Positions 4,647-57,439 of a stretch of 64,000 nt of DNA are shown here, one piece after another. Below the pieces are notes generated by a model. That model worked only from the letters and a program-made list of their open reading frames with translations, was not told the DNA's origin and searched no databases. How positions within the stretch are numbered: the stretch's first letter is position 1; every line of letters starts with the position of its first letter. This DNA is from Gemmatales bacterium (GTDB taxonomy: Bacteria > Planctomycetota > Planctomycetia > Gemmatales > HRBIN36), in assembly GCA_041640595.1 (NCBI GenBank), contig JBEPZY010000009.1, positions 64,001 through 128,000 of the forward strand. The letters run 5' to 3'. Position numbers and translations under genes: made by a program.

Positions 4647-4831
4647 GTAACTGTTGCCGGCGGCCATAGATTGTGCGTTCCAGATGCGCACGGCCGTTGG
4701 TCAGTTACAAACCGAGGAGAGTAACTGTAGCCAGCGGCGATCGATTATGGGTTTCAGAACCTGGCACTGTCTATATATGTTCGGCAATTGCGGGTAACTG
4801 TAGCCAGCGGCGATCGATTATGGGTTCCAGA
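4647..4831. repeat. three 38-bp direct repeats with 36- and 35-nt unique spacers
   Basis: GTAACTGTAGCCAGCGGCGATCGATTATGGGTTCCAGA at 4647 (6 mismatches), 4721 (1 mismatch) and 4794; last copy overlaps the stop codon of the M81 peptidase gene. Confidence 0.92.
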
Positions 4832-9692: not shown

Positions 9693-10497
9693 GACCGCTC
9701 CTTATTTCAGGTCGCATTGCCAGAGGCATCGTCTCGAATCTGCCGAAGTGGCATCCCCGGCAATTTGTTCCGCACTCCGCAATTTTACACACCATCCGTG
9801 CACTGCTGGTGTATCCAGACGTTCCTTGCGGACAAACATCGGTGCGTTGAGCTGCCTTTTCAGCAAGGCGTGTCAACGAGCCTTTCGGTCGGCATGCAGC
9901 CCCGGCACTGACACCGTTGCTGCGACAATGCCGGCCAGCTCCCGTCGTGCCTCCGTTACTCCCCTGGACGCGACTCCTCCGAACCGTCCTCAAACCGCAC
10001 GCAGGCATTGCCAAACTTGCTCCGGTGTTTAGAATTGGTTTGCAGAATGGCGACAGGCACCCGGGCTAGGAAAACCAAAAGCTGACGCGGTGCCGCTCCA
10101 CATGGCGAACTTTGCCGCCCAGCTGCCGGGCTATCATCACCGCCTGCGTCCACCGTGTCTAATGCGGGGGATTTGTCAGGCGATAGCCGCCAGCCTGTCC
10201 CTTACAATGGAAATGCAGCACGCAAGCCACACTTAGCCCGGTCAACTTGGCGAGCTTGGCGGCTTTTATGCCTCCCTCGTCTGAGCCTCAAGGCCAGCAG
10301 CGGCGACTTTCCCGGGCAACGGCTGGTGCTGAACGGCTATCGTCAGGCAAGCCGAACGGCTGCTGAAACCGGACGCGCTGGTAGGCGGGAAAAGGCGATT
10401 GGCGATCGCTTCACCGCCTCCATCCCACGCCCTGACCCTCCGGAACGATAAAGAGCTCTGGGTCAAGAGAACCCCTACCCAGCCCCACGGGGACTTG

Positions 10498-10848: not shown

Positions 10849-11043
10849 CTGGACGATTGTACACTAAGTGGCACGGAGTGCTAAGTAACGATACGGACGT
10901 AACTTGCGGTTGGCTGTTATTTTGGCAGTAGCGCTCTATATCGCTAGAAAACGCCGTTTGGTGCTGCGCTTTTTGCTGCGCCTGCATTTTTGCGCTCTGC
11001 ATTGTCAGAATTTGGTTGCCTTACCAGCTTGGGACACGCTGGC
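10849..11043 (+). repeat. 195-bp tRNA 3'-trailer element, copy 1
   Basis: Homologous to 39233-39427; first 65 nt have 63 identities. Confidence 0.9.
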
Positions 11044-11051
11044 GCTCGGGG

Positions 11052-11423
11052 CTGAGTTATGCCCAGTTTTGACGGGAGCTCCGCTGGACGTCAGGCATGG
11101 GGAGGATAACGGTTACGTCGGACGGCCTGTTTTTCCGGGGGCACTTGGAACACGCAAGCCCCGCCTGTGCTTGCTCAGGTTTTAGCAAAGGTTTAGCACG
11201 CTTTCGGCATAATCGTGAATCTGGCGGCTGTTTGTGCTTCCTCAGGTTCTGGCAAAGGGCCGCCGACCGTTAGGCACATAGTTGGCTGCGGTCGGCTCGC
11301 CTGCACGCGGCAATGATGTTAGCACCCGGTGCGCGAGGCCGGAAAAATAAGAATTTTCGTAAGCTCTTGTCCGGGACTGTTTTTCGAAATCACCCGCCGC
11401 TATCAAAACTGGGGATGAGTCAG
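11052..11423 (-). mobile_element. MITE-like element, copy 1 (inverted relative to copies 2 and 3)
   Basis: Imperfect terminal inverted repeats CTGAGTTATGCCCAGTTTTG / CAAAACTGGGGATGAGTCAG; homologous throughout to 38805-39106; no ORF. Confidence 0.8.
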
Positions 11424-11705
11424 AGATTCACGCCGTGCTCAGATTCACGCCATATTCACCACGTAAACACCGGATGGAAGAATCGCGTCGGAAACTATGC
11501 TCGCCGAGCCAGGACGCACACAAGGCGTTCCAATCGCACATGGAAATTCAAAGGCCAGACCATAGATAAAGTCGCAGGTGAAAGGTTCACGTAGCGAACC
11601 GTGAACGGGCTGTTGGAGGATTGTATGGCAGGTGCGCACGACACTGAGGGGTCGCTGGAACTATTCGAGGAGCAAACGATGGCCAGCCTTGCGGGGCGGC
11701 ATGTC

Positions 11706-11812
11706 GAAACGGTGAGTGAAGCCGGGACGGTGAACCTGGCCCCGTGCCTGGCTCATCAGCCGGAGGTCGTGCTTTCGAGGGGAACGATGAGTGGGGCCGG
11801 GATGGTGAACCT
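11706..11812. repeat. 32-bp direct repeat pair, period 75
   Basis: GAAACGGTGAGTGAAGCCGGGACGGTGAACCT vs GGAACGATGAGTGGGGCCGGGATGGTGAACCT (27/32). Confidence 0.8.
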
Positions 11813-12200
11813 CACACAGAGCGGCGATGAGAATTGGCCAGGCTCGCGGTGGCCGTTACCTGCCGCCCGGAAGCAAACATGCAGAAATGGCTCGGATTTT
11901 CACGGTAGCTGCCAAAGAACGCCGCTTCTGGAAGGCGGAAAGCATGGCTGCGGGAGAAGGCCACGAGATGAAAGCGCCCATAGCTACGGTGCGGCAGGGT
12001 TATGCAAAGGCGATTGGTGTGAAGGAAGGAAATTGCCACGCGACAGAAAAAGCGGTGGCAGCGACCCAGCGTTGCTTTCGGAAGTCGAACGGCCTGGAGG
12101 CAACAAACAGCAGGGAGAAAAAATTAGCGGCAACAATTACCCGTTGTGTGTGCACAGTTCGCAAGGACAAAAGCGGGCGAGGTCGGCGAAAGTCTGGGTG

Positions 12201-15200
12201 ATGATGCTGGCCAGTCTGACGGTGAGCTGGGCGGTGCTCGCGTTGGTGTGGATCACGGTGATCGAGTGCAGGCCAGGCTGGGTTGGTGCCGCGCAGTCCG
12301 AACAAGGTGCAAAGGGTGACCAGGGACGCAAACCAGTCCGACTCTTCGCCGAGGCGGAAGATTTCCGGGTCACCTCCCCCGGCTGGGAGGTGGTGCCATA
12401 TCGGGAAAATTATTTCGCCTGTACATTTGCGATCACGTTTTTGTCGCGGATGGCAGCTCTGGGAGCGCCGGAGCAATTACCGCCGGGTCAGGTGGCGGTC
12501 GCGGAACAGGACATCCAGATTCCCTACGGAGACACTTACGAACTGCTGGTGCGTTACGAACAGCCGTACAACTTCTCCTGCGAGTTCACCATCGAAATCG
12601 AACAGCATGGCAAGGTGGTGGGTCGTTTCCTCTGTGGCCGGTTGACTGATCCGAAAATCTGGGCGTTCAACAACCACAAGCGTGAGCCGATGGTGCGCTA
12701 TACGTGGAGCGGGACGGATAACATCGTCTGGCAGCATCCCGGAGCGGTGAAACTGTCGGGGGGAGCGGCGAAGTTGCGGTTGTTAGCCACAGCCCAGCTC
12801 GACGAAGGCCGACCCCGTCGCAATGCCGCACGCCGGCATGTGGACGTCATCTGCCTGACCAACGACCGTGACGGTATGGAACGCCAGAAAAAGGCAGGTT
12901 ACCTGGAGTTCGACGGCTGGTTGGTGCAGGATGGCGACCTGTTTGTGCGGATCACCAACCCGGCCGACGCTCCGGCGCCAGTGGTGGTCGTGTTACCGCC
13001 CATGCAGGCCCAGCATTCGCCGTATTACGTACACGTCCGCGATTGGCCGACCACCACCGTGCTCAAGTCGGGTCGTGCTGTCTCAGCTACCGATTATCAG
13101 ATCGCCGGGCCGCGTTCTCAGCAAGTTCGGCCGGAATTGCTCGCACCGCTGGTGGAACTGCCCAAGGTCATACCGCCCGAGCAGTATTTGCAGCCCGGCG
13201 ACCGTTCCGGATGGGTTCCGATTGGTCAGTCGTGCGATGCCCTCAATTACGGCCAGTGGTGGGCTGAGGTACGTTATCCGCCGAAAACACCGAACGCTCC
13301 GCCGGCCGGCTCGATGTATCTCCGCTGGGAATTCGGCATACCGGACGGTCAAGGCGGCATTCGCGTTATCAAGGACATCACCATCCGCTGCGATGGCAAG
13401 GATCGGACGGAGTTCGGTTTCGACATTCCCGGGTGCATCCATCCCAATCCGACTCTGGCGGCGATCCTGAAACAACGATACTGGTTGCCGGAAATCCGTA
13501 CCCAGAAGGAAGCGTTACGCTGGCTTCTCGAGCAAGTCCGCAAGTTCCCGCAGGTGGGACGGGTGCCGGAGCGGTTGTTGATTTACGGAATCGAAGCGGG
13601 CAACACGGAAGAAGGCCGGCAATTGGGACTGGCCCTGGGAGACAATACTCGTTATCGCGGCCAGGGAAAGAAACGCGGCATGATCACGCATTGGCCCAAT
13701 CCCGACCTGAAATGGATCGAGCAACAGGTGGCCAAACGCCCCGGCGGTCTGGAAGATGTGCTCATTGTCAGTTACGGCGATGAGATTCACCTGCCTGCCG
13801 AAAAGATCACCGACCAGGAACTGGCCGACTGGCTCAAGGCTCGCGGTGTGGCTTACGATGGCCCCGTTCAGGTCGCCAAAGACCGGTCGCATCCGCTGTA
13901 CTACTACTCGCAACTGGCGGCCAAAGAGAAAGGCGGTGCTCGTTATGCCGCGGCCACGGCGTATTACAAAAGCAAAGGGGTGCTGACCGGCGCGAATTAC
14001 TCACCGCATGCCAACTTCCTGGTCAACGAGCTGGACTATATCCGCACGTTCAAGCTGCGGGCGATGAGCATGCCCTGGACGGAAGATTATGCCTGGCAGA
14101 TAGCGGAGTTCAGCCCGCAAGTCGTGGGGTATCTGCTCAGCGGTTTGCGAGCGGGGGCCAAATACGATCGCCTGCCCATGCACATGTACGTCATGCCGCA
14201 TTCGCCGGGCCAGATTCCCAGTGAGTTCCGCCAGAGTTTTTACTGTTCCATCGCCCACGGGGCCAAAATGATCAACTACTTCACCGCCACGCCTTTAGCC
14301 GTCGGTTACACGGAAAACTACGTGGACACCTACGACCTGGGCATGTGGCAGATGATCCACCGCTGCACGCATGAAGCGGGGATTTTCGAGGACTATGTGG
14401 TGGACGGCGAGGTTCGCCCCGCACGAGTCGGCTTGCTGCTGTCGAGCGTGGACGACATCATCACCGGCGTCAACAACTTCAGCCTGGCTTTGCACAACAA
14501 CGAGCGCAAAGCGATCTATTTCGCCCTGCGTCATGCTCAGGTGCCGGTGGATTTCCTCAGCGAGGATGATGTCATCGAAGGCAGGGCCCGCGACTATAAG
14601 GTCATCTACGTAACCCAGCAGTACCTGCACTCCCGCTGCATCGCAGCGTTGCAGAAATGGGTCGAGGCAGGCGGGACGCTGGTGGCCTTCTGCGGTGGTG
14701 GTTTCCGGGATGAGTTCCAGCGCGACAATCCGGCAGCGGTGCATCTTTACGGTGCCCGCAGCGGTCCCATCCAAACCGACCCGAACCTGGTTCCCAAATA
14801 CCTGCTCGGCCAGGCTAATTCGCCGTTCTTTGCCAAGCAGGATTTGCCGCTTTACGAACCGTGGGACTACGTGCAATGGAATCTCCGTCGGGCCAAGCCC
14901 TTCGCCACCGCACCGGCAGCACCGACCGATGGCAAAACAGCAGCCACAACCGCCGACAAAGCGAATGCTTCTGCCGCCGACGGGGGCGTCGAGCGTGTAC
15001 CCGTCATTGCCTGGAAACAACCGCTCACGGTAACAACAGGAACCGTGGTCGGCACGTTTCAGGACGGCAGTCCGGCAGTGGTTGTGCAAGCCCACGGTCG
15101 CGGACGCACCGTATTGTTTGCCTTTCTGCCGGGCCAGGCCTATCTGCGTAGCGGATTACCAGTGCGGCCAGTGGATCGGGGAGCCCACCCCGGCAGCTTT

Positions 15201-15551
15201 GCCCATTACCTGCCGACCGATATGGATCGGCATCTCCGCCGGCGTCTGGTGGATGATTTCCTGCCGGCAGACGATTCTTCGATCCGTCCGGTGCTGGTGG
15301 ATGCGGAATTGATCGAGACTACCTGCATTGACACGCCAGTCGTCAACGGCCGACCTGCACGTCTGGCCATTCCGTTGATCAACTGGAGTGGCAAGCCGGT
15401 ACCGCAATTGCACGTGCTCATCCGCGACGTGCAAAAAGTCAGCAGGGTGCGGAGTGTCGTTCACGGCGAGCTGAAGGCCACACCGTCACCGCAGGGTTTG
15501 CGGGTCACACTGCCGCTGGAAGTGGCCGACATGCTCCTCATAGACCGCTAA
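12201..15551 (+). CDS. large secreted protein, probable glycoside-hydrolase-like barrel plus beta-galactosidase trimerisation-like domain
   Basis: ORF is open from 11601, but the first ~200 codons look non-coding; signal-like segment near 12201; ALRHAQVPVDFLSEDD...YKVIYV...WVEAGGTLV resembles the GH42 trimerisation domain; start uncertain. Confidence 0.7.
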   Translation: MMLASLTVSWAVLALVWITVIECRPGWVGAAQSEQGAKGDQGRKPVRLFAEAEDFRVTSPGWEVVPYRENYFACTFAITFLSRMAALGAPEQLPPGQVAVAEQDIQIPYGDTYELLVRYEQPYNFSCEFTIEIEQHGKVVGRFLCGRLTDPKIWAFNNHKREPMVRYTWSGTDNIVWQHPGAVKLSGGAAKLRLLATAQLDEGRPRRNAARRHVDVICLTNDRDGMERQKKAGYLEFDGWLVQDGDLFVRITNPADAPAPVVVVLPPMQAQHSPYYVHVRDWPTTTVLKSGRAVSATDYQIAGPRSQQVRPELLAPLVELPKVIPPEQYLQPGDRSGWVPIGQSCDALNYGQWWAEVRYPPKTPNAPPAGSMYLRWEFGIPDGQGGIRVIKDITIRCDGKDRTEFGFDIPGCIHPNPTLAAILKQRYWLPEIRTQKEALRWLLEQVRKFPQVGRVPERLLIYGIEAGNTEEGRQLGLALGDNTRYRGQGKKRGMITHWPNPDLKWIEQQVAKRPGGLEDVLIVSYGDEIHLPAEKITDQELADWLKARGVAYDGPVQVAKDRSHPLYYYSQLAAKEKGGARYAAATAYYKSKGVLTGANYSPHANFLVNELDYIRTFKLRAMSMPWTEDYAWQIAEFSPQVVGYLLSGLRAGAKYDRLPMHMYVMPHSPGQIPSEFRQSFYCSIAHGAKMINYFTATPLAVGYTENYVDTYDLGMWQMIHRCTHEAGIFEDYVVDGEVRPARVGLLLSSVDDIITGVNNFSLALHNNERKAIYFALRHAQVPVDFLSEDDVIEGRARDYKVIYVTQQYLHSRCIAALQKWVEAGGTLVAFCGGGFRDEFQRDNPAAVHLYGARSGPIQTDPNLVPKYLLGQANSPFFAKQDLPLYEPWDYVQWNLRRAKPFATAPAAPTDGKTAATTADKANASAADGGVERVPVIAWKQPLTVTTGTVVGTFQDGSPAVVVQAHGRGRTVLFAFLPGQAYLRSGLPVRPVDRGAHPGSFAHYLPTDMDRHLRRRLVDDFLPADDSSIRPVLVDAELIETTCIDTPVVNGRPARLAIPLINWSGKPVPQLHVLIRDVQKVSRVRSVVHGELKATPSPQGLRVTLPLEVADMLLIDR

Positions 15552-15722
15552 ACTCGCTGGCTGAAAATGCAAGCCAGCATCTTTGGCGCCAGTGGTCTGC
15601 GAATGAAAGAGTGCTGGCTGGCACTGGGAGCCCAGGTGTGGCGGAAAGCCGGAGCATGAGCGCCAGTGCTCTCTGATTCCAATACGTCCTGGTGTCCGAC
15701 GGACACCGCATTAGCGTCGCCC

Positions 15723-16232
15723 TCAGGTCGGGCAAAGAATCACCGGCGGCGAAGCTGGCTGTACAGCATTCCCGGAAGCGGTTCTATTCGACGTGCTGGC
15801 GTTGCTCACCGGCACACTGCCTCGGACCGATTCGGTTACCGCGTGGGCGGTCAGCAACCGTTGCAGTTCGGTATCGCTCATCGCCCCTTCTCGCCGTAGC
15901 GCCTGCGTCTGTCCCCAGCGATCGCTGATGACCAGAGCTGGCAGGTTACGGACAGCGAAAGCCCGTGCCAGAGCCGCTCCGTATCCCCCATCGCTCGCAT
16001 TCGCATAAACGCAATGGAAGTGTTGTCTGGCCAGCTCCAGGCTCCTGGCCGACCAGCTTTCCCGAACCAAATTTTTCCAACCGCTGTCTCCTTCCCCGAT
16101 GACCACCAGAACCGGCTTGCCGTCTTGCCTGCACGCTCGCAAGGCCGCCCCGTAATCCCTGTTCCACACATCGTCCGATGGCGAGAGCGAGACGGCCAGC
16201 AATACCGTCATCCAGCCAGCTACAGGTTGCAT
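15723..16232 (-). CDS. secreted thioredoxin-like fold protein (no CxxC)
   Basis: AAGGAGG RBS; signal peptide; WNRDYGAAL...GKPVLVVIG...LPALVISD pattern. Confidence 0.7.
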   Translation of the reverse strand: MQPVAGWMTVLLAVSLSPSDDVWNRDYGAALRACRQDGKPVLVVIGEGDSGWKNLVRESWSARSLELARQHFHCVYANASDGGYGAALARAFAVRNLPALVISDRWGQTQALRREGAMSDTELQRLLTAHAVTESVRGSVPVSNASTSNRTASGNAVQPASPPVILCPT

Positions 16233-16454
16233 AGCTGCTCCTCCTTGTGGCATCCTCATTACCAGCGCAGACGACATAGCCTGCGCATCTTGAGGCATTG
16301 GTTTTAGCAACCCGAGGCCAACAGGGCAAACAAAATTTTGAAAAAGTTTCTGCTGCTTCCGCCAACCGCTGCGTTCATCGTGAAATTCCAAACTTGTTAT
16401 TCTCACCAAAACATCGCAAGTTAACTCGCCCACGGCTCATGCTTGTTCTCGCAC

Positions 16455-16691
16455 ATCGGCAGCAACGCATTGCCATCGGGCTACTCCGTCCAGTTGCGAC
16501 AAAATGCGGCAGGCGGCATGCGACCCCAATACAGCGACGCCTTGCCTTTGGTGCTACAGGGATAAACCACGTGCTGCTGCACTTGTCGGCAGCAATACAG
16601 CGACGCCCTGGTTTTCGTGCTACCCTAGCTGCGGCGAAATACGGGAGGCGGAACTCGAACGCCCACAGCGACGCCTTGGTTTTACTGCTAC
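16455..16691. repeat. four degenerate ~31-bp direct repeats with unique spacers
   Basis: CAATACAGCGACGCCTTGsyTTTsGTGCTAC at 16527, 16593 (27/31), 16661, weaker copy at ~16455; spacers 35 and 37 nt between the best copies. Confidence 0.85.
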
Positions 16692-17047
16692 CCCGGGCCG
16701 GGTCAGCGATAGATAGTGCAACTGTCCGGCGCCGCTGTATCGGACGCAAATCGCTGGGCGGCGCTGCGTGCTGGTTGTGGTCGCGGCAGGGAAAACCTTT
16801 TTGATCCGACGAATGCCAATCGCTGGGATCGCGAGCCACGTTCTGCCGGAAGTGTTATTGTGATATATGGCGTTTTTCACCGGGGCGTGTCCGAGCCAGG
16901 CCAGGTGCGGCGCCGCAAACTATTTCGCCGTGCCAACCCGAAAACACTTGCCCACTACCCTTTGAGTCTGGATACGGTCGTCTCGACGGCGATGCCGGTG
17001 ACTTCGTGCCTGCGTGAAAAGTCCGGCGCACAACGAAAGGACTGCAC

Positions 17048-23140: not shown

Positions 23141-23236
23141 GTGTGTCCCTTTCCATCGCCGGGTTGCAAGCTTGGTAGAGCTCAGAGCAGCCATCACCAT
23201 CGAGCGTGTGTCCCTTTCCGTAGTCGGGTTGCAAGC
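23141..23236. repeat. 31-bp direct repeat pair with 34-nt spacer
   Basis: GTGTGTCCCTTTCCATCGCCGGGTTGCAAGC at 23141 and 23206 (28/31). Confidence 0.88.
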
Positions 23237-23287
23237 GCGGACACTTGTTGCAGATATGCCTTTGCGATTCGCCAGGACGCTTCGTTG

Positions 23288-24136
23288 GCACGGCGGGCTG
23301 ACGTCCGCCGCTCCTGGTCGTGTGTGGGACTCCGCATTGCGAATCACGCATTTCGCGACGAACGAACGTCGTGCAACCAGGAGCGGCTGGCGTAAGCCAG
23401 CCGTGGTACGCGAACGTAGCCCGTCGGCGAAAGACGGTTGCATGTGCAGGTGCGTTACTTAACCACGGCGGGCTAACACCCGCCGCTCTTGGTTGTCGCT
23501 CCGGTCGTCGTCCAACATAGCGCGGTTGCAACCGCACAGCGCCCGGTTCAGCGAACCACGGCGGGCTGACGCCCGCCGCTCTTGGTCGTGTGTGGGACTC
23601 CGCATTGCGAATCACGCATTTCGCAGCAAACCAACGTCGTGCAACCAGGAGCGGCTGGCGTAAGCCAGCCGTGGTACGCGAACGTACCCCGTCGGCGAAA
23701 GACGGTTGCATGTGCAGGTGGGTTACTTAACCACGGCGGGCTGACACCCGCCGCTCCTGTTCGAATGTGCGTTTGTGCATCGCAAAAATCGTTGTTTCGC
23801 CGGCGGACGTCCGCACACCAATACAAGAGCGGGGGGCGTAAGCCCCCCGTGGCGCCAATGGACACGATTGTAATCCGGAGCCGTATGAGCCATAAACGAT
23901 TCTGGCGCTACGTTAGCCCCGTGGCGCTTATAAACGCGAATGCAACGGCAATCCGCACACACCATCGGCGGTCTGCTGACGAATGGCGCCGGTCTCTGCG
24001 GATGCGGGTTTGTCCACCCACGGCGGGCTAACACCCGCCGCTCTTGGTTGTCGCTCCGGTCGTCGCCGAACAGAACACGACTTCGACCGCACAGCGCCCG
24101 GTTCACCGAATCACGGCAGGCTAACGCCCGCCGCTC
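23288..24136. repeat. REP-like palindrome cluster 1 (9 intact 26-bp units)
   Basis: CCACGGCGGGCTrACrCCCGCCGCTC at 23288, 23463, 23556, 23731, 24018, 24111; opposite-orientation GAGCGGCTGGCGTAAGCCAGCCGTGG-type units at 23381, 23649, 23827. Confidence 0.92.
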
Positions 24137-24216
24137 TTGGTGGTGATGATCGCCGCTCATGGCGAAATCGTTTCCCGTTGCCAGCGCGGTACTCGCGCTT
24201 GCCTGGGAATATTGGC

Positions 24217-24312
24217 ATCGTGACCGCTTTAGAGAATGAAGAGGACATTGATGATGCAGAGCAGCATGCGGGCCAGATGCAAGTCTCGACCGCTCTGGAG
24301 AGTGAAGAGGAC
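24217..24312. repeat. ~30-bp direct repeat pair, period 66
   Basis: Core GACCGCTTTAGAGAATGAAGAGGAC at 24222 vs 24288 (22/25). Confidence 0.82.
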
Positions 24313-29940: not shown

Positions 29941-30050
29941 GCGTTGCAGCAACAATCGGGCCGAGCGGTGCGGCCATATGACTAGGCGACGTGGAAAATC
30001 TCCCAGCGATTGCCTTGCAGCGACAATCAGCCCGAACGATGCAGCCAGAT
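29941..30050. repeat. ~39-bp direct repeat pair, period 71
   Basis: GCGTTGCAGCAACAATCGGGCCGAGCGGTGCGGCCATAT vs copy at 30012 (31/39). Confidence 0.82.
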
Positions 30051-34557: not shown

Positions 34558-34913
34558 GGTTAGCCTCCTTGCTGATTCTTGTCGGTCCTCCTGACCGGAT
34601 GGGCGTTCATTGTAATTGCGGCATAGCCTGGTTCAAGTCCAGCTGCTGTCGAGTCTGTTAATCCCCCGCCAGCCCCCCGGCGACGCGGTACAACGAACCA
34701 GGGCCAGCAGCCACCCAAATTCCGGAGAGAAACACGTGTTTCCTTGCACGGAATTCGCGTCTCGCTAGCACGGCTAATGTCCGCCGCTCTCAAAGCGGAG
34801 TACGTTATTCGCGGCAACATCCCCGCGGGCGTCCGATCCCCGCTCTTGGTACGGACGGAACGTGTGCCGGTGAAATGGCGACTTTTGCGATGTACAAACG
34901 CACGTACAGCCAG

Positions 34914-36542
34914 GAGCGGGGGGGCGTAAGCCCCCCGTGGCTGGGCAACCGACCGGGACGGCAATGACGTTTGGCAGTATTGGACCGCATCGTGCGTGTG
35001 GAGCCTCTTACAGAGCGACCACGATGGCAACGACGTCTGCCAACCCAGCGGCAGCAGTTTTCTGCATGTTTGCGGTACCGCCCATGCAAATGCATTTCCG
35101 CGAGCCACGGCGGGCTAACGCCCACCGCTCCTGTGAATGTGCGTTTGTCCATCGCAAATAGCGCTTTGGCAGCGAACGAACACCGTGCACCAAGAGCGGC
35201 TGGCGTAAGCCAGCCGTGGTTGGCGAGCGTTCCCGTTCGCAAACAGCGTTCATGACCGCCAACACGTTTCCGAGCCACGGCGGGCTGACGCCCGCCGCTC
35301 CTGATCTTGTGCTCGCCAGCCGCTGGACAATGTTCGATTCTCGCGGGACAGCGTCCCGTTCACCGAGCCACGGCAGGCTAACGCCCGCCGGTCTTGTGGC
35401 GCTGCGTGTGTGCGGTGCGGATGGCGTTTCCCGCAATAATCAGGCGCGGTGCACCAGGAGCGGCTGGCGTAAGCCAGCCGTGGTGAACGCAACCGTTGCA
35501 CCGGCGGGAAACGCACTTTTGCAACGGCGTCCGGCTTGCAATCAGGAGCGGCTGGCGTGAGCCAGCCGTGGTTGGCGAGCGTTCCCGTTCGCAAACAGCG
35601 TTCATGACCGCCAACACGTTTCCGAGCCACGGCGGGCTGACGCCCGCCGCTCCTGTGAATGTGCGTTTGTCCATCGCAAATAGCACTTTGGCAGCGAACG
35701 AACACCGTGCACCAGGAGCGGCTGCGGTAAGCCAGCCGTGGTGAACGCAACCGTTGCACCGGCGGGAAACGCACTTTTGCAACGGCGTCCGGCTTGCAAT
35801 CAAGAGCGGCTGGCGTAAGCCAGCCGTGATGGGCGAGCGTTCCCGTTCGCAAACAGCGTTCATGACCGCCAACACGTTTCCGAGCCACGGCGGGCTAACG
35901 CCCGCCGCTCCTGAGCTTGTGCTCGCCAGCCGCTGGACAATGTTCGATTCTCGCGGGACAGCGTCCCGTTCACCGAGCCACGGCAGGCTAACGCCCGCCG
36001 CTCCTGATCTTGTGCTCGCCAGCCGCTGGACAACGTTCGATTCTCGCGGGACAGCGTCCCGTTCACCGAGCCACGGCGGGCTAACGCCCGCCGCTCCTGA
36101 GCTTGTGCTCGCCAGCCGCTGGACAATGTTCGATTCTCGCGGCACAGCGTCCGGTTCACCGAGCCACGGCGGGCTGACGCCCGCCGCTCCTGTGAATGTG
36201 CGTTTGTCCATTGCAAATAGCGCTTTGGCAGGGAACGAACACCGTGCACCAGGAGCGGCTGCGGTAAGCCAGCCGTGGTGAACGCAACGGTTGCACCGGC
36301 AGGAAACGCACTTCCGCAACGGCGTCCCGCTTGCAATCAAGAGCGGCTGGCGTAAGCCAGCCGTGGTGAACGCAACCGTTGCACCGGCGGGAAACGCACT
36401 TCTGCAACGGCGTCCGGCTTGCGATCAGGAGCGGCTGGCGTAAGCCAGCCGTGGTGAACGCAACCGTTGCACCGGCGGGAAACGCACTTCTGCAACGGCG
36501 TCCGGCTTGCGATCAGGAGCGGCTGGCGTAAGCCAGCCGTGA
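34914..36542. repeat. REP-like palindrome cluster 2 (18 intact 26-bp units in modular array)
   Basis: 10 units GAGCGGCTGGCGTAAGCCAGCCGTGG-type and 8 units CCACGGCGGGCTAACGCCCGCCGCTC-type joined by recurring linkers (periods 81, 88, 89, 93). Confidence 0.95.
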
Positions 36543-36847
36543 TGGGCGAGCGTGATTGCAATGGCGAAAACGCAGTTGGTAACGGCGATCGGGCGGTCGC
36601 ATGTTGTTGGAACCGCGTAGGCATTCCGTGAAATGAACCCGGCTGGCCAACCTCTGCCGCTCCAGGTTGGGGGCGTGGATTTTCCACTTTGCAGGCGGAT
36701 TCGCCGAGTGTAAATTTGTGGGGGGACGAACAACTGCGGAGCTTTCGGCAACGGCTGCCTTGGTCAAAAGCCGAGGCGAAATTGAACCGCTCCGGACGGC
36801 AGCCATTCCCCTGACACTCGGGTGGTGTCCTCGTAAGGAGAACCAGC

Positions 36848-37949: not shown

Positions 37950-38059
37950 GTTGTCAAGACGATCCGCACGGCACGCCTGCCACGGACTGCCTCAGCCCCC
38001 ACCATCGCCACAAAAGCGGTCATGGTTGTCAAGACAGTCCGCGCGGCATGGCTGCCACG
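37950..38059. repeat. 35-bp direct repeat pair, period 75
   Basis: GTTGTCAAGACGATCCGCACGGCACGCCTGCCACG vs copy at 38025 (30/35). Confidence 0.85.
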
Positions 38060-38259
38060 TATTGCTTTTGCCGGGCTTGAATCCAAGCACGCTTCCGGCG
38101 TCCCTGAATTCTTTGCACACGCTTCCCACTCCGCAAGGGGCGGGAACCTCATCGTGCCTGGAAAATCAAGGAAAAACGCGTCGGAGACTCTCCCGCAAGC
38201 GACGGTAGAGCTATTCTCCCCAACCGCGTGACCAGTCCCAAACTCGCCGGCGCGAACGT

Positions 38260-38432: not shown

Positions 38433-38795
38433 ATGACCTATCCCCAGCTTTAGTTGGGCAGGCCGCTTCGCAGAACCCCGTCAGACAATGGCTTATAAAA
38501 GTCCTATTTGTCGGTCTCGGGAACCAAACGCCCCCTCGTTCCAGCATTCGGTACGAGAATAGGACTGGCATTGCTGCAGACGACCATCACCAAACGCCAC
38601 CTCATTCCAGCGTTCGGTCTGCCCATTGCAGCCCACCGCGTGCCGGGCGATTGACTACCTCCTTTGAAGCCCCGAAGAAACTCGGCGGAGTTCTCGATGC
38701 TCCCTCTGTCCCCGGAAAAACAGGCCATCTGACGGAACCGTCATTATCCGCCCGCCTTACGTCCGGGTGAGCCCCAAAGCTGGGGGATGAGTCAG
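38433..38795 (+). mobile_element. MITE-like element, copy 2
   Basis: TGACCTATCCCCAGCTTTAG...CAAAGCTGGGGGATGAGTCAG termini; homologous to the adjacent copy 3. Confidence 0.8.
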
Positions 38796-38804
38796 CAATC
38801 ACGG

Positions 38805-39106
38805 CCGACCTATCCCCAGTTTTGGTAAGGGCAGGCGATTTCGCAACACACCCCCAGACAAGAGGTTACGAAAACTCCCATTTTTCCGGCCTCACGCACC
38901 TGGCGCTCACATCGTTGCAGCGTTTGGCCAAGCCGATCGCAGCCAATTGCGTCCCTAGCGGTCGGCGGCCCTTTGCCAAAACCTGAGCAAGCACAGGCGG
39001 GCCTTGCGTGTTCCAAATGACCCCGGAAAAACAGGCCATCTGACGTAACCGTTATCATCCGCCCGCCTTACGTCCGGTTGAGCCCCAAAGCTGGGGGATG
39101 AGTCAG
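38805..39106 (+). mobile_element. MITE-like element, copy 3 (shortest, no internal duplications)
   Basis: CCGACCTATCCCCAGTTTTG...CAAAGCTGGGGGATGAGTCAG termini. Confidence 0.8.
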
Positions 39107-39158
39107 CAATCACGCCGCTTGACGCCCATGCGGCGCGGACAGTAAAATACGCTGTGCT

Positions 39159-39232: not shown

Positions 39233-39427
39233 CTGGACGATTGTACACTAAGTGGCACGGATTGCTAAGTAGCGATACGGACGTAACTTGCGGTTGGGGG
39301 CTGTTTTGGCGGCTGTGCTCTATATCGCTTGATAACGCCGTTTGGTCATGCGGATTTCGCTGCGCCGGGATATTCCCGCTCTGTATTGTCGGAATTTCGT
39401 TGCCTTGCTGGTTCTGGACACGCTGGC
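39233..39427 (+). repeat. 195-bp tRNA 3'-trailer element, copy 2
   Basis: Homologous to 10849-11043. Confidence 0.9.
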
Positions 39428-39860
39428 TCCGGGCAATGGAACTGGTGCAAAAATGGCTTCTCCGTCATAGCCACGGCTTCGTACTCCGCTGTCCATGAGA
39501 GGGGATAAATTGTCCCTTTCCACTATCCGCACTCTGGTCATTCACAGTCTTGGCCACTCTGCTGGGCCTCTATCCACCTGGTAAACGCCGCGGCAGATCA
39601 CGCATCTACGAGGATTCCCTCACTCTCTGGCCGTTTCAGATCCGTCACCGGCTCTCCTACCGCGAAGGTGCTCAGTATCGCCCAGCAGCAGGGATTTCGA
39701 GTGCCGTCTTTGCAAGCCTGCCACTACCGCGTGCATGAGTTGGATCCTGAGTTACTGCAAAGACCTTCACTGCCGAATCTCGGCCGGGGACACCGTGGAA
39801 CAAAAAAAATTATTGTTCACCAGAGGGCGATGCCGAGCGTATATTAATACAGAGCAACCC

Positions 39861-40244
39861 GGGGGCGAACTGGCTTCGACCGGGTGTGCGAAAGCGTCAG
39901 TGGCGTGTCGTGGTTGGTCGGTGGGCCACGTAAAAAGCCGACCGAACCCAAAGTGCCGAAGCGCACTACGCTCTGGCTGCCTAACCCTACACCGCAGCCC
40001 CGAACCGCGAGCCTTGCCTGAGGGCGAGCGGATCTCGGCGATGCTTATCAGGCCCCCAGCAGCAGCTACCGGCGGAACTGCTGGCGGTAACCATGGCCGG
40101 TTAGCGATGGGTCGGTCCCGCCTGCTGGATCGCCCGGAGCGAAACGGCACGACCGATTTTCGGTACGGCCACAAAAGCAGGCTACACACGTAGAAGCTGG
40201 CGCGGAGCCACTCCGGGACGCGGGTTCGATTCCCGCCGCCTCCA
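39861..40244 (+). ncRNA. ssrA: tmRNA
   Basis: 5' GGGGGCGAACTGGCTTCGAC; 3' GCGGGTTCGATTCCCGCCGCCTCCA; tag ORF 39955-39984 AEAHYALAA*. Confidence 0.97.
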
Positions 40245-40424
40245 CTGTCATGCCTCTCCATGTTGGTTCGCAAAGCCTCGTACCGAGCCGTCCAAACCGT
40301 TTCCATGCGATCGCCCCGCCCGCACTACCGTAGCGCGGTTGACGATCTGACGCTGCTTGCAAGCGGGACCGCTCCATCCGCATAAACCCGACAAGTGTCC
40401 CCAGACACGTCCATAGTCGCAGAA

Positions 40425-40982: not shown

Positions 40983-43961
40983 ATGAATCTCGTCAACAAC
41001 CAAGGCTTCCACAATCCTCAACCCGCGACTGGTGCCGAGTTGTTCAGCGCCGACCGGCATCCTTTGCTTGAACGCGAAGCCGTGCGACAAATTGGTATCC
41101 ACGGGGCTCGGGGCACCGGTAAAACCTGTTATCTTGCCTCGTTGTACGGCCGCAGGATTAACTACGACCTGGGGTTCAGCCTCTCGTTGGACGACAACAA
41201 TCCCGAGGATTCGCTCGATCACCTCAGCCACGCCTGGCAGGCGTTGCAGAAAGGTAGCGTGCCTCCCGCCACGGCAGCGGTCAATCCGTTCCGTCTCTCT
41301 TTCACCGTAACGCATTGTGGCCAGAGCTGGTCTGTCCGGACTCTCGATTACGCCGGCGTTCTCGTCGAGCGTACCCCCACCGGCGCCCAGGACCTCAAGA
41401 TGGAAGTGCAACAATGGCTCTGCCAGTGCGACGGACTGCTCATTTTCGTGGACCTCAGCGAACAGCCTCAGAATTTGCTCGACCGCCTCAACGAAGTGGA
41501 CCTTCTGCTCAACCGCCTCCGCAAACTCAGCCCGGATGGCCAAACCGTACCCATCCCCGTAGCCGTCGTCTTCACCAAATGGGATTGCGTGGCTAAAGAC
41601 CTGCAAGGGGCTGATTTCGCCAGTCAACAGCAGAAACTCCGTCACTATCTCGCTAACCATGCCGAGTTCAAGCAGTTTTATGACCAGATCCAGCTCAGCG
41701 GCGAGCGAGTCGAGGTTTTTCCGGTTTCGGTTTTCGGCAAATATCAGGGCAATAATCTCCCGCCGCCGCAGGGAGCTCAACCTTTCGGTATTCACGAGCC
41801 CATCCTCTGGGTGCTTCAGGAATGCGATCAGGCAATTTTCGATGCCACCGAGGCGCGAGTGACCCCGCTCCTGAACAAACGCTGGGCCAACTACGCGAAA
41901 GCCATTGCTACTTATAACTCAATCGCCAGAAAACGCCTGATTGTTCGTGGGCCGGTCGCAGATAGTTTCGCCCAGGCCATTCGCCAGCTGCGTATGCGTG
42001 CCGCCTTTCGCTTCACACGCCTGGCCGCTTCTATCCTATTCACCTCGGTGCTGCTGACCCTGTCCGGAATGTTAGGCTGGGATACCTATCGCTACCACGC
42101 CGCCCTTAGGGCACTAAACGACGTTCGGTATTTGCCGGAAATGAAAGAACAAGCCGCCCTGGATTACATCAAAACAGCTAACCCCTTTGCACAGTGGCTC
42201 GGTCGTCGTCAGCGCGTCGAGGAACATCTCGCTAAGTTGCGCAATGACTGGCACGACGCTGACTATAATGAATTACTATCGTTCTGGACAGCACACGAAG
42301 CGGACGAAACTAAGCAGCAGGAAATCGTAACCCGCACACGCCAGTTTCTAAATCGGTGGCCCGATAGTCCTTGCCGTTCTGAAGTTGAAACCTGGCAGCG
42401 AAACGCCGATGCCATTGTCCGTAAGCAACACGAGCAAAAAGCCTGGGAGGGTCTGGTGCAATTCTTCACCCAGCATGATAAAGACTCCGAGGCGGAACAA
42501 CGCATTAACAGGATCGAAACGTTTTTGCGTGAGTATCCCGAGTCTGACTATAAGGAAGATGCACTAAGCTTAAAAAGAACCGCCGAAGATGCTCACAAGC
42601 GCTGGCAACAGTTCCAGACCCTGCTAAGTGACTGGCCACAAATAAAGCAGGAATGTGAGACCTTGACCATCGGCGGTAATTCTGATGCGGCCGTTAAAAG
42701 GTGCGTGGAATTCCGAGCCAAATGCCAGCAGTTTCAACGGTCAGTATGGTCATCTCCAACTTATAAAGAGTATAGCGACGAGCTGGCCCGGCTCCTAGAC
42801 GAGATTGACAAGACCGGCGACCAATGTCAGTGGCGGGGAGTCGAACTTTATACCGCTCGCAACCCTTCAAACTATGACGAAATCATCAAGAGGGCGAAAG
42901 CATATAAGGACAGCACAACATTCGCCACTAAGTATTTCGAGAAGGCAGCGGATAAGCTTATGATGCAGACCCTGCGAAGTGAATGGTCCCAGATACAAGT
43001 CGAATGTGAGAACCTGACCAACGGCGGTAACTCTGATGCGGCCGTTGAAAAGTGCAAGGAATTCCGAACCAAATGCCGGCAGTTTCAACAGTCCGTCTGG
43101 TCATCTCCAACTGATAAAGAGTATCGCGACGAGCTGGCCCAGCTCCTTGACGAGATTGACAAGACCGGCGACCAATATCAGTGGCGGGGAGTCAAACTTT
43201 ATGCCGATCGCAACCGTTCACACTATGAGCAAATCATCGAGAAGGCGGAAGCATATAAGGACAGCAAAATCTTCACCACTAAAAGCTATGATAAGGAAGC
43301 GGATAGTCTCATCGAAAAGACGGCTGAGAGCTGGGACTCCGCACTGTATAACGGTTTTCGGAACGCTGCCATCTACGCCGCTGGTCTGGCAGTCGAGACC
43401 AACGATATGGAGCGAAAGACCCGCGCATTTGAAGATGCGGCCAAGTTAGCCCGTGCATATCTTGAGAGCAAATGCCCAAAGAAAAAACATAAGTCAACCG
43501 TGGAAAAATGGTTGCAATGGTTCGATGGAATCAACAAACCTGCCGTAGCGTTAACGGTGATTATCGTCGATGCTCAATTAGCTGACAATGCGGAGACCAT
43601 CTATGATCCGTTCGATCCGCCTGATGTGGAAATTACCCTGGAACTCAGCACACAGGCAGGCCAAAACCAGCAATGGAAAACCCCCGTCGTGAATAATAGC
43701 TTTGCTCCGAGGTATAACGTCGAATGCAGGAATGTTATGGTAAGCTGGAACGACCGCAACGCAAAGCTAAAACTGACTCTAACCGACAAGGACATAGCCT
43801 CTGATGACGAGTTGCCTATAACTTTCCAGGGGCCAGATGTGATTTTCCTGCTGGAAGGCTGGGTTTGGGTACAGGATGGGCCAGGACGCCATCACATTCG
43901 CTTTTCCTGTGAGCAATTGCGGCCACCAACCTTGCCTGAGTATGGTAACAATCCTCTATAA
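40983..43961 (+). CDS. membrane-anchored TRAFAC-type GTPase with duplicated helical repeat and C-terminal C2-like domain
   Basis: G1 GARGTGKT, G3 DYAG, G4 TKWD, G5-like VSV; TM LAASILFTSVLLTLSGMLGW; 117-aa tandem duplication; C2-like KTPVVNNSFAPRYN...LTLTDKDIASDD; AAAGGAG RBS. Confidence 0.85.
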   Translation: MNLVNNQGFHNPQPATGAELFSADRHPLLEREAVRQIGIHGARGTGKTCYLASLYGRRINYDLGFSLSLDDNNPEDSLDHLSHAWQALQKGSVPPATAAVNPFRLSFTVTHCGQSWSVRTLDYAGVLVERTPTGAQDLKMEVQQWLCQCDGLLIFVDLSEQPQNLLDRLNEVDLLLNRLRKLSPDGQTVPIPVAVVFTKWDCVAKDLQGADFASQQQKLRHYLANHAEFKQFYDQIQLSGERVEVFPVSVFGKYQGNNLPPPQGAQPFGIHEPILWVLQECDQAIFDATEARVTPLLNKRWANYAKAIATYNSIARKRLIVRGPVADSFAQAIRQLRMRAAFRFTRLAASILFTSVLLTLSGMLGWDTYRYHAALRALNDVRYLPEMKEQAALDYIKTANPFAQWLGRRQRVEEHLAKLRNDWHDADYNELLSFWTAHEADETKQQEIVTRTRQFLNRWPDSPCRSEVETWQRNADAIVRKQHEQKAWEGLVQFFTQHDKDSEAEQRINRIETFLREYPESDYKEDALSLKRTAEDAHKRWQQFQTLLSDWPQIKQECETLTIGGNSDAAVKRCVEFRAKCQQFQRSVWSSPTYKEYSDELARLLDEIDKTGDQCQWRGVELYTARNPSNYDEIIKRAKAYKDSTTFATKYFEKAADKLMMQTLRSEWSQIQVECENLTNGGNSDAAVEKCKEFRTKCRQFQQSVWSSPTDKEYRDELAQLLDEIDKTGDQYQWRGVKLYADRNRSHYEQIIEKAEAYKDSKIFTTKSYDKEADSLIEKTAESWDSALYNGFRNAAIYAAGLAVETNDMERKTRAFEDAAKLARAYLESKCPKKKHKSTVEKWLQWFDGINKPAVALTVIIVDAQLADNAETIYDPFDPPDVEITLELSTQAGQNQQWKTPVVNNSFAPRYNVECRNVMVSWNDRNAKLKLTLTDKDIASDDELPITFQGPDVIFLLEGWVWVQDGPGRHHIRFSCEQLRPPTLPEYGNNPL

Positions 43962-46630: not shown

Positions 46631-46928
46631 TTCGGCACCTGAACCGTGTCCTGTCACGTTTGGCGTCCTGCGTGCGTTAAGGTGTTGGAAAACGAGGAGA
46701 CACGCAGATAGCTGTAAGGTGCATGCGAAAACACCAGCACTTGCTTCCACTTGTGCATCACCACGGGGCTAAGCAAACGGGCGAAGAAGAACAGGAGCAG
46801 CTAGTTGCGTGTTCGCGGCGGGGTTGGTCCCGGTAGGGGTTGGCGTTGCGTTGTGGCGGTTGAGGATCGTAGCGGAGCGGCGTTGGGCCGCTCGTTATCG
46901 TTTAAAAGTGCAGTCACGGATGAGGCGA

Positions 46929-47036
46929 GTTGATGGAATATTGCCTCCGAATGAGGTGCGGCGGACCGCTTACAGGACTCAGCCAGCATTTCAGTGACGT
47001 GTTGGTGGAATGCTGCCTCCGAATGAGGTGCGGTGG
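46929..47036. repeat. 36-bp direct repeat pair with 36-nt spacer
   Basis: GTTGATGGAATATTGCCTCCGAATGAGGTGCGGCGG vs copy at 47001 (32/36). Confidence 0.9.
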
Positions 47037-57328: not shown

Positions 57329-57439
57329 ACAGAAGGTCGTCGTGACTCGCACGTCAGCCATCCGCGCAAAGACGAGCGAAACCGGTCACACACGCACAGC
57401 TGACGGAAGGTCACCGGGATTTGCACGTCAGCTATCCGC
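57329..57439. repeat. 37-bp direct repeat pair with 37-nt spacer
   Basis: ACAGAAGGTCGTCGTGACTCGCACGTCAGCCATCCGC vs copy at 57403 (30/37). Confidence 0.87.

Follow-up and report, generated by a model that had tools for sequence, protein, structure and literature searches.

The window (the whole 64,000-nt stretch of DNA analyzed here) carries, 310 nt behind a tRNA-Val, a 372-bp non-coding element that we call MITE copy 1 (11052–11423, plus strand), bounded by IS4-type terminal inverted repeats at 11052–11070 (left, plus strand) and 11405–11423 (right, minus strand) and equal in length to the family unit of ~306 bp plus 67. Inside it, a 30-mer at 11162–11191 and a diverged second copy at 11229–11258 (both plus strand; 24/30 identical, 23/26 in the core, and each 27/30 to the MITE consensus) enclose a 37-nt insert, the putative ectopic spacer (11192–11228, plus strand), which gives a repeat–insert–repeat period of 67. 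Base 11161 also matches across this lag and extends the matching envelope to 31 nt (i.e., a duplication of 30–31 bp around an insert of 36–37 nt), such that a 30-nt duplication fits in either of two registers, 11161–11190 or 11162–11191. The insert is unique: a BLAST search with 11192–11228 returned no further match anywhere in the genome, its identity to neighboring blocks is at most 37%, and comparison with seven empty MITE copies or with their consensus revealed no significant likeness (p = 0.81 and 0.80, respectively; 400 shuffles), so that an origin from the MITE itself was rejected (p = 0.8 against shuffles).

Two further copies of the element lie in the same window, both on the minus strand. 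Copy 3 (38805–39107) is empty at the site, with a single 30-mer at 38970–38999 that is 29/30 identical to repeat 1 and has continuous flanks, whereas a second, more diverged copy (38434–38795) is also empty at the copy-1 site and yet filled elsewhere, by a 30 + 36 + 30 unit (38523–38618, period 66) at a position where copies 1 and 3 are empty—thus forming a reciprocal pair within one window. These results bear out the first-pass annotation, which had described a 30-mer pair around a unique 37 nt in copy 1 and a single, uninterrupted 30-mer in copy 3, and both the paralogues and an orthologous locus (L031) now support its proposal that a CRISPR-sized insertion with target duplication gave rise to the pattern.

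The MITE family is multicopy and non-coding, with a unit of ~306 bp and 19-bp inverted ends, and 17 full or partial stretches were analyzed (recovered by BLAST, an end-motif scan and nhmmer; the set excludes short fragments and a copy on C2 that is split). The copy-1 site is empty in 13 of these 17, outgroups included, and the insert is absent from the family consensus, such that neither a duplication common to most copies nor an insert native to the element is what the family shows. The four filled stretches are copy 1 (+67), C3_570119 (+67), C1_307130 (+76), and C3_609982 (+75/76); the insertions of the first three end at consensus position 141, and that of C3_609982 reaches about there with mismatches. 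In a tree of the right arm, copy 1 and its orthologue are nested among four empty copies with support of 95/96 (the left-arm tree is poorly resolved). The insert is also present in the orthologue, which is 96.6% identical across 5017 aligned bases, and in all four sequencing runs examined (4/4), among which one X14 contig spans the insert from 11059 to 17000. No empty allele of the exact locus was seen in L031 or in these four runs; joints in runs X2 and X14 that skip 67 nt were considered as empty alleles and rejected as paralogues, given that the contigs align only inside the MITE edges. Aligning the MITE copies to polarize the event, as the earlier annotation had proposed, thus yields a gain: judged by sequence comparison, the copy-1 insert is an acquisition older than the strains compared, with its polarity resting on paralogues. 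A separate insertion nearby, at 9943–9963, is polymorphic: runs X2, X3, and X10 have a spacer-sized 36-nt insert there with an apparent 21-nt duplication, shorter than either ruler described below, and the insert is absent from the window and from L031.

Across the family, insert-bearing expansions come in steps (+66/67, +72–76, +133, +135, and +200), with two that are not quantized (+16 and +33) being short tandem duplications without an insert, and one lag of 63 nt reflecting, in our reading, internal likeness of the MITE. Some copies hold several spacers, e.g., four repeats with three different inserts in register at C1:308468 and two spacers at C3:609982, and the insertions recur at the same edges. 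Using the same detector as for the genome at large, 15 MITE stretches (5492 bp in total) contain nine units, where the rate in non-coding DNA would predict 2.3 (p = 7e-4).

We label this family “IS4-type” because the same end motif encloses, at locus L093, an IS4 element of 1208 bp that encodes an IS4 transposase (NF033591, above cut-off) and has a 9-bp target duplication. At the ends of the MITE itself, a 9-bp target duplication is legible at 8/9 in one copy, at 6/9 in one other, and at ≤3/9 in the other 8 of 10, copy 1 included. As in an IS4-family MITE, the host element has inverted ends of ~19 bp whose motif is identical to that of the IS4 element; what sets the copy-1 event apart is that its 30-bp duplication is internal and not a product of the element's transposase. 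A search of this genome for an intact partner transposase bounded by such ends found none, and the MITE was not recovered from the 40 genomes of relatives that were searched. A split copy at C2:458403–463927 (L034) has MITE halves around 5.3 kb with a Ser/Thr kinase–WD40 gene and REP-like repeats; this 5.5-kb structure was considered as the autonomous parent and rejected, as the kinase–WD40 gene lies inside and no transposase does.

The genome (G000) has two cas1 genes, each beside a CRISPR array. A type I-B cas1 (above cut-off), accompanied by cas2, cas4, cas3, cas5, and cas7 and by a III-B module, adjoins an array of 30-bp repeats on C8, and the second cas1 adjoins a reverse transcriptase beside an array of 37-bp repeats. 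The canonical spacers number 341 of 35–40 nt in the 30-bp array and 244 of 33–40 nt in the 37-bp array, and 273 of the 341 I-B spacers are 36 or 37 nt long, matching the size of the copy-1 insert. Their periods are sharply distributed, at 65 (36 cases), 66 (165), 67 (108), and 68 (26) in the 30-bp array and at 72 (12), 73 (81), 74 (99), 75 (37), and 76 (10) in the 37-bp array. At 26 of 31 strong canonical protospacers on C15 the PAM is 5′-CCN. This C15 (L035) is a 9.6-kb, 50% GC virus-like contig that was binned with the genome, has a weak family B polymerase match, and is targeted by many leader-proximal I-B spacers.

Several other features of these systems were observed. The reverse transcriptase is group II intron-like and immediately precedes the second cas1 and an array of 246 repeats (C1:356904–359617). 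The type I-B Cas1 (C8:22440–23816; L005:1941–3317) has a ~100-aa low-complexity, acidic insertion in its N-terminal domain, and in a clade of relatives Cas1 measures 359–458 aa against the usual 330–336; as a cause of promiscuity this insertion is not sufficient, considering that the relative G001, in which the other Cas1 alone was found, is just as scarred. Next to a piece of 30-bp array lies the remnant of a DDE transposase (C10:64771–65228), a short contig carries a small array whose 30-bp repeat is different and AT-rich (C20:1210–1581), and a one-spacer unit has a near-canonical I-B repeat (C3:328836–328932).

A scan of the genome for repeats at fixed lags returned 3057 repeat-spacer-type hits (a count that takes in canonical arrays and REP-like families), versus four in one codon-block shuffle. 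Masking the arrays and runs of N left 868 units, and dropping 40 tandem-like ones and 261 whose repeat has >12 genomic copies left 567 orphan units, of which 448 lie at lags of 64–77 (i.e., 32 per lag versus 1.8 outside). Their periods fall into a 30-bp class (65: 32, 66: 81, 67: 56, 68: 28) and a 37-bp class (72: 22, 73: 56, 74: 66, 75: 51, 76: 15), with peaks at 66 and 74 that parallel both canonical arrays. By our own gene caller 496 of the 567 are non-coding, and 425 units have repeats that are single-copy in the genome. The repeat pairs mostly differ by 2–7 mismatches in 30 and are perfect in just 9 of 387, and this record is therefore old and long-running.

The window contributes its share of orphan units in addition to those in the MITE. 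Two comprise three repeats with two inserts, namely 4647–4831 (38-nt repeats, periods 74 and 73, 37-bp class) and 16527–16693 (periods 66 and 68, 30-bp class), and a further 37-bp-class unit (period 75) occupies 11708–11812. The others are found at 23141–23236 (period 65, with an insert 24/35 identical to C15), 24222–24312 (period 66), 29941–30050 (period 71), 37950–38065 (period 75), 46926–47036 (period 72), and 57329–57439 (period 74). Elsewhere in the genome, C4:199329–199850 presents a nested insertion: a first insert, similar to canonical spacer 189 and with matching ends, was partly duplicated, along with part of its repeat, when a second one entered.

As for donors, inserts of the 30-bp class match array spacers or C15 (E < 0.01) in 11 of 195 cases versus none of 192 in the 37-bp class, with shuffles giving 0–2; these 11 include two copies of a single unit and a match of 16 nt to a spacer of the 37-bp array. 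Similarly, 66% ungapped identity to C15 is reached by 7 of 195 30-bp-class inserts (1.0 when shuffled) and by none of 192 in the 37-bp class. The MITE-borne insert at C1:308575, first in its mini-array, matches canonical spacers 203 and 186 with the same PAM-side start, and in our reading two further inserts allow the same PAM-side register as canonical spacers (three in all). Some orphan inserts match the chromosome itself, up to 36/37. For the copy-1 insert, no donor was found in the genome, in C15 (best 54%), among canonical spacers (best 18/37), in 50,697 phage records (best E = 2), or in IMG/VR (exact 20-mers, 0).

Taken together, we consider it very probable, on comparison of sequences, that the copy-1 insert records off-target integration by the genome's type I-B Cas1–Cas2, which serves an array with a 30-bp repeat and 35–40 nt spacers, and that it is most likely one of ~400 such scars in this bacterium. 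By established integrase chemistry, Cas1–Cas2 attaches the two ends of a trimmed prespacer to different strands at a distance of one repeat length, and the target is duplicated when the gaps are filled. By the route proposed here, type I-B Cas4–Cas1–Cas2 would have put a 36–37 nt prespacer into MITE copy 1 rather than into the CRISPR array, its ends would have been joined 30 bp apart in the MITE, and repair would have duplicated the 30 bp between. The site was probably picked for a loose likeness to the CRISPR repeat, above all to its A-rich 3′ end, and the scar may have been kept because the MITE is dispensable non-coding DNA.

Target sequences across the genome were compared with the canonical repeats in the same respect. 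Resemblance to the canonical repeat is highest at the inferred register (9.38 matches versus 8.2–9.3 at other offsets; n = 112), as it is over the last eight bases in the 37-bp class (3.15 matches at register versus 2.2–2.7; n = 88). Fitted logos single out G1, A12, A29, and C30 in the 30-bp class and T32, G33, and A36 in the 37-bp class, with a weak target motif overall (information 4.4 versus 3.2–3.5 in controls). G/C borders, present in 21 of 41 cases at register versus 9–20 at shifts, did not clearly account for site choice. In copy 1, the register 11161–11190 aligns the site's AAA with the AAA of the canonical repeat 3′ end, and the right edge common to 67- and 76-type insertions suggests that both integrases anchor there. 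Two other candidate determinants were rejected. The CGTAA-N19-TTACG pseudo-palindrome, present in the MITE and in the 37-bp leader, occurs 93 times versus 55–102 at other spacings and shows no positional peak near orphan units, and a hairpin preference is contradicted by target, flank, and insert folding alike.

One explanation that dispenses with Cas1 is that two MITE copies recombined or took part in break repair, and that both their versions of the 30-mer were retained around captured filler DNA. It draws on the unequal affinities of the repeats, repeat 1 being closest to copy 3 (29/30) and repeat 2 to C2_27910 (27/30), and on a ~60-nt patch, ~25% divergent within the otherwise near-identical MITE of L031, that looks like exchange between copies. 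The patch does suggest such exchange, as far as an alignment can, and this would account for two bases common to repeat 1 and copy 3 at which repeat 2 agrees with other MITE copies, a sharing that one duplication leaves unexplained and that needs later conversion or parallel change. However, repeat 2 of L031 equals the family consensus except for one added A, so the likeness of repeat 2 to C2_27910 in the window is recent, and both flanks of copy 1 have the same two MITE copies as their nearest relatives. Neither the period of 67, nor the quantized gains of the family, nor the 425 units with single-copy repeats are accounted for by recombination between copies, and we regard it as very unlikely to have made the insertion, while part of the difference between repeats 1 and 2 probably does reflect later mutation together with patch exchange between MITE copies.

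A non-Cas integrase, or a tiny mobile element, that makes target duplications of both 30 and 37 bp would fit the weak target motif and the lack of a clear PAM at orphan matches: of seven orphan matches to C15, whose targets are diverged (61–86% identical), none has CCN where it would be expected, and of six self or C15 orphan matches two do, which is within chance in our reading. It would also fit the uneven load of units, which is high in two congeners and low in G002 despite a 37-bp Cas1. Against this, the inserts have no sequence or ends in common, some match array spacers, the IS4 ends make 9-bp duplications, and the two size classes not only copy two arrays but follow the Cas1 inventory of relatives. 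Specifically, G001 has 22 orphan units in 242 kb with periods of 69–76, none at 65–68, and only the 37-bp-type Cas1 was found in it (in an assembly 87% complete, such that a I-B Cas1 could be unassembled), whereas G003 has both Cas1s and both classes (three and three units in 354 kb). Densities are rough, since relatives were sampled by stretches, the genomes are related, and the G001 contigs are short; with that proviso, G000 has 10.1 orphan units per 100 kb, while G002 has one in 133 kb, G004 has three in 236 kb, G006 has one tandem-like unit in 200 kb, and G014 has none in 200 kb. The period class thus tracks the integrase inventory in G001 and G003, and an integrase other than Cas1 strikes us as highly improbable. 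Perfect duplications of 31 bp in G003 (L204:1319–1416) and 37 bp in G001 (L224:3746–4278) surround spacer-sized inserts, and because they sit on cas-gene contigs, they represent recent events near the cas loci of these genomes.

That the filled form is ancestral, with empties arising by deletion between the 30-bp repeats, or that an old tandem duplication has a diverged middle, is barely credible: the absence of an empty orthologue and the second +67 at the same register, in C3_570119, lend it something (the two inserts agree at 19/37 ungapped, or 18/37 for the L031 version, levels that 13 and 45 of 18,906 canonical spacer pairs reach), but many independent precise losses would be needed, a tandem origin is at odds with an insert unlike both its neighboring blocks and the MITE, and the flanks resemble each other (83/109) much more closely than the two inserts do. 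C3_570119 and copy 1 may derive from one inherited event, still a gain if so, or C3_570119 may be a second hit.

Returning to off-target integration by the type I-B Cas1–Cas2, the product at copy 1 has the character of a neo-CRISPR unit but not of a functional CRISPR array. Its repeats are MITE sequence rather than the cognate CRISPR repeat, and no leader was found beside it, in that its flanks have no BLAST match to either leader region. We take it to be, most likely, a neutral scar rather than an array that works. Coverage by RNA run X10 was rejected as a sign of transcription, as only contigs are available and all 30 bins are evenly covered. Relative to the canonical I-B array (C8:1–21080), the units here share a 30-bp repeat, spacers of 35–40 nt, and, for some inserts, common donors; unlike that array, with its CRISPR repeat and leader, the copy-1 unit has MITE repeats, one spacer, and other repeat ends. 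A more ambitious reading—that the MITE both gives rise to new CRISPR arrays and disperses them, i.e., leaderless fixed sites for both integrases with growth in register, spread by the IS4 transposase, read-through transcription, and some working guides—appears unlikely to us, and if true it would mean that the birth and spread of arrays have been caught in a wild genome.

Cas1–Cas2 is thought to be confined to the leader–repeat junction, which protects the genome. Nivala, Shipman and Church reportedly described in 2018 non-canonical spacer integration that leads to “neo-CRISPR” arrays with the type I-E system of E. coli. Over-produced E. coli Cas1–Cas2 is reported to integrate off target and create new arrays (PMC7054753; 10.1101/148544), with circumstantial evidence of off-target integration in two other species (10.1101/148544). 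In vitro, the P. furiosus Cas1–Cas2 integrates outside CRISPR at paired positions spaced 30 bp, where the conserved bases include G1, A12, and A29 (PMC6698737). The copy-1 unit is like the E. coli case in having a spacer-sized insert outside an array with a repeat-length duplication of ordinary DNA. It differs from laboratory over-production in that native I-B and RT-linked Cas1s would have left ~400 fixed, aged scars, and in that two size classes, filled and empty paralogues, and several spacers in register are seen here. The in vitro system (PMC6698737) likewise shows a 30-bp ruler, full-site integration, and recurrent, loosely repeat-like sites (G1, A12, A29), though on a plasmid in a tube rather than as inherited scars, and its preference for G/C borders has no clear counterpart here (21/41 versus 9–20). 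Within the openly accessible literature that we searched, we found no genome-wide natural record of off-target integration.

If two native integrases did produce these hundreds of fixed insertions, off-target acquisition would be a real mutational force in this lineage, and the scars would constitute an old record of past viruses outside arrays. The MITE family offers the same site before and after insertion, with repeat hits at one edge by 30- and 37-bp rulers, and its series of copies displays leaderless growth to three spacers. A defined 306-bp substrate makes both leader-independent site choice and the way in which new arrays begin testable.

Several features beside the MITE copies are of interest in their own right. 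A ~200-nt element, always after GCCCA, starts exactly at the 3′ boundary of five different tRNA genes (Val GAC, Ile GAT, Val TAC, Val CAC, and, in part, Met/CAT) and at one more site without a tRNA call; it occupies 10849–11050 and 39233–39430 of the window and recurs in G000 at C2:26160, C5:76391, C3:147730, and C4:216770. It resembles one terminus of an integrative element that is not strict about its tRNA target. Clusters of REP-like palindromes with a CCACGGCGGGCT-type core (up to ~400 genomic hits; periods 88 and 93) are located at 23287–24141 and 34819–36667. The window further contains a TPP riboswitch before thiC (876–978), a tmRNA (39861–40247), and, within a double-GTPase gene, a tandem repeat of 351 bp (42615–43282).
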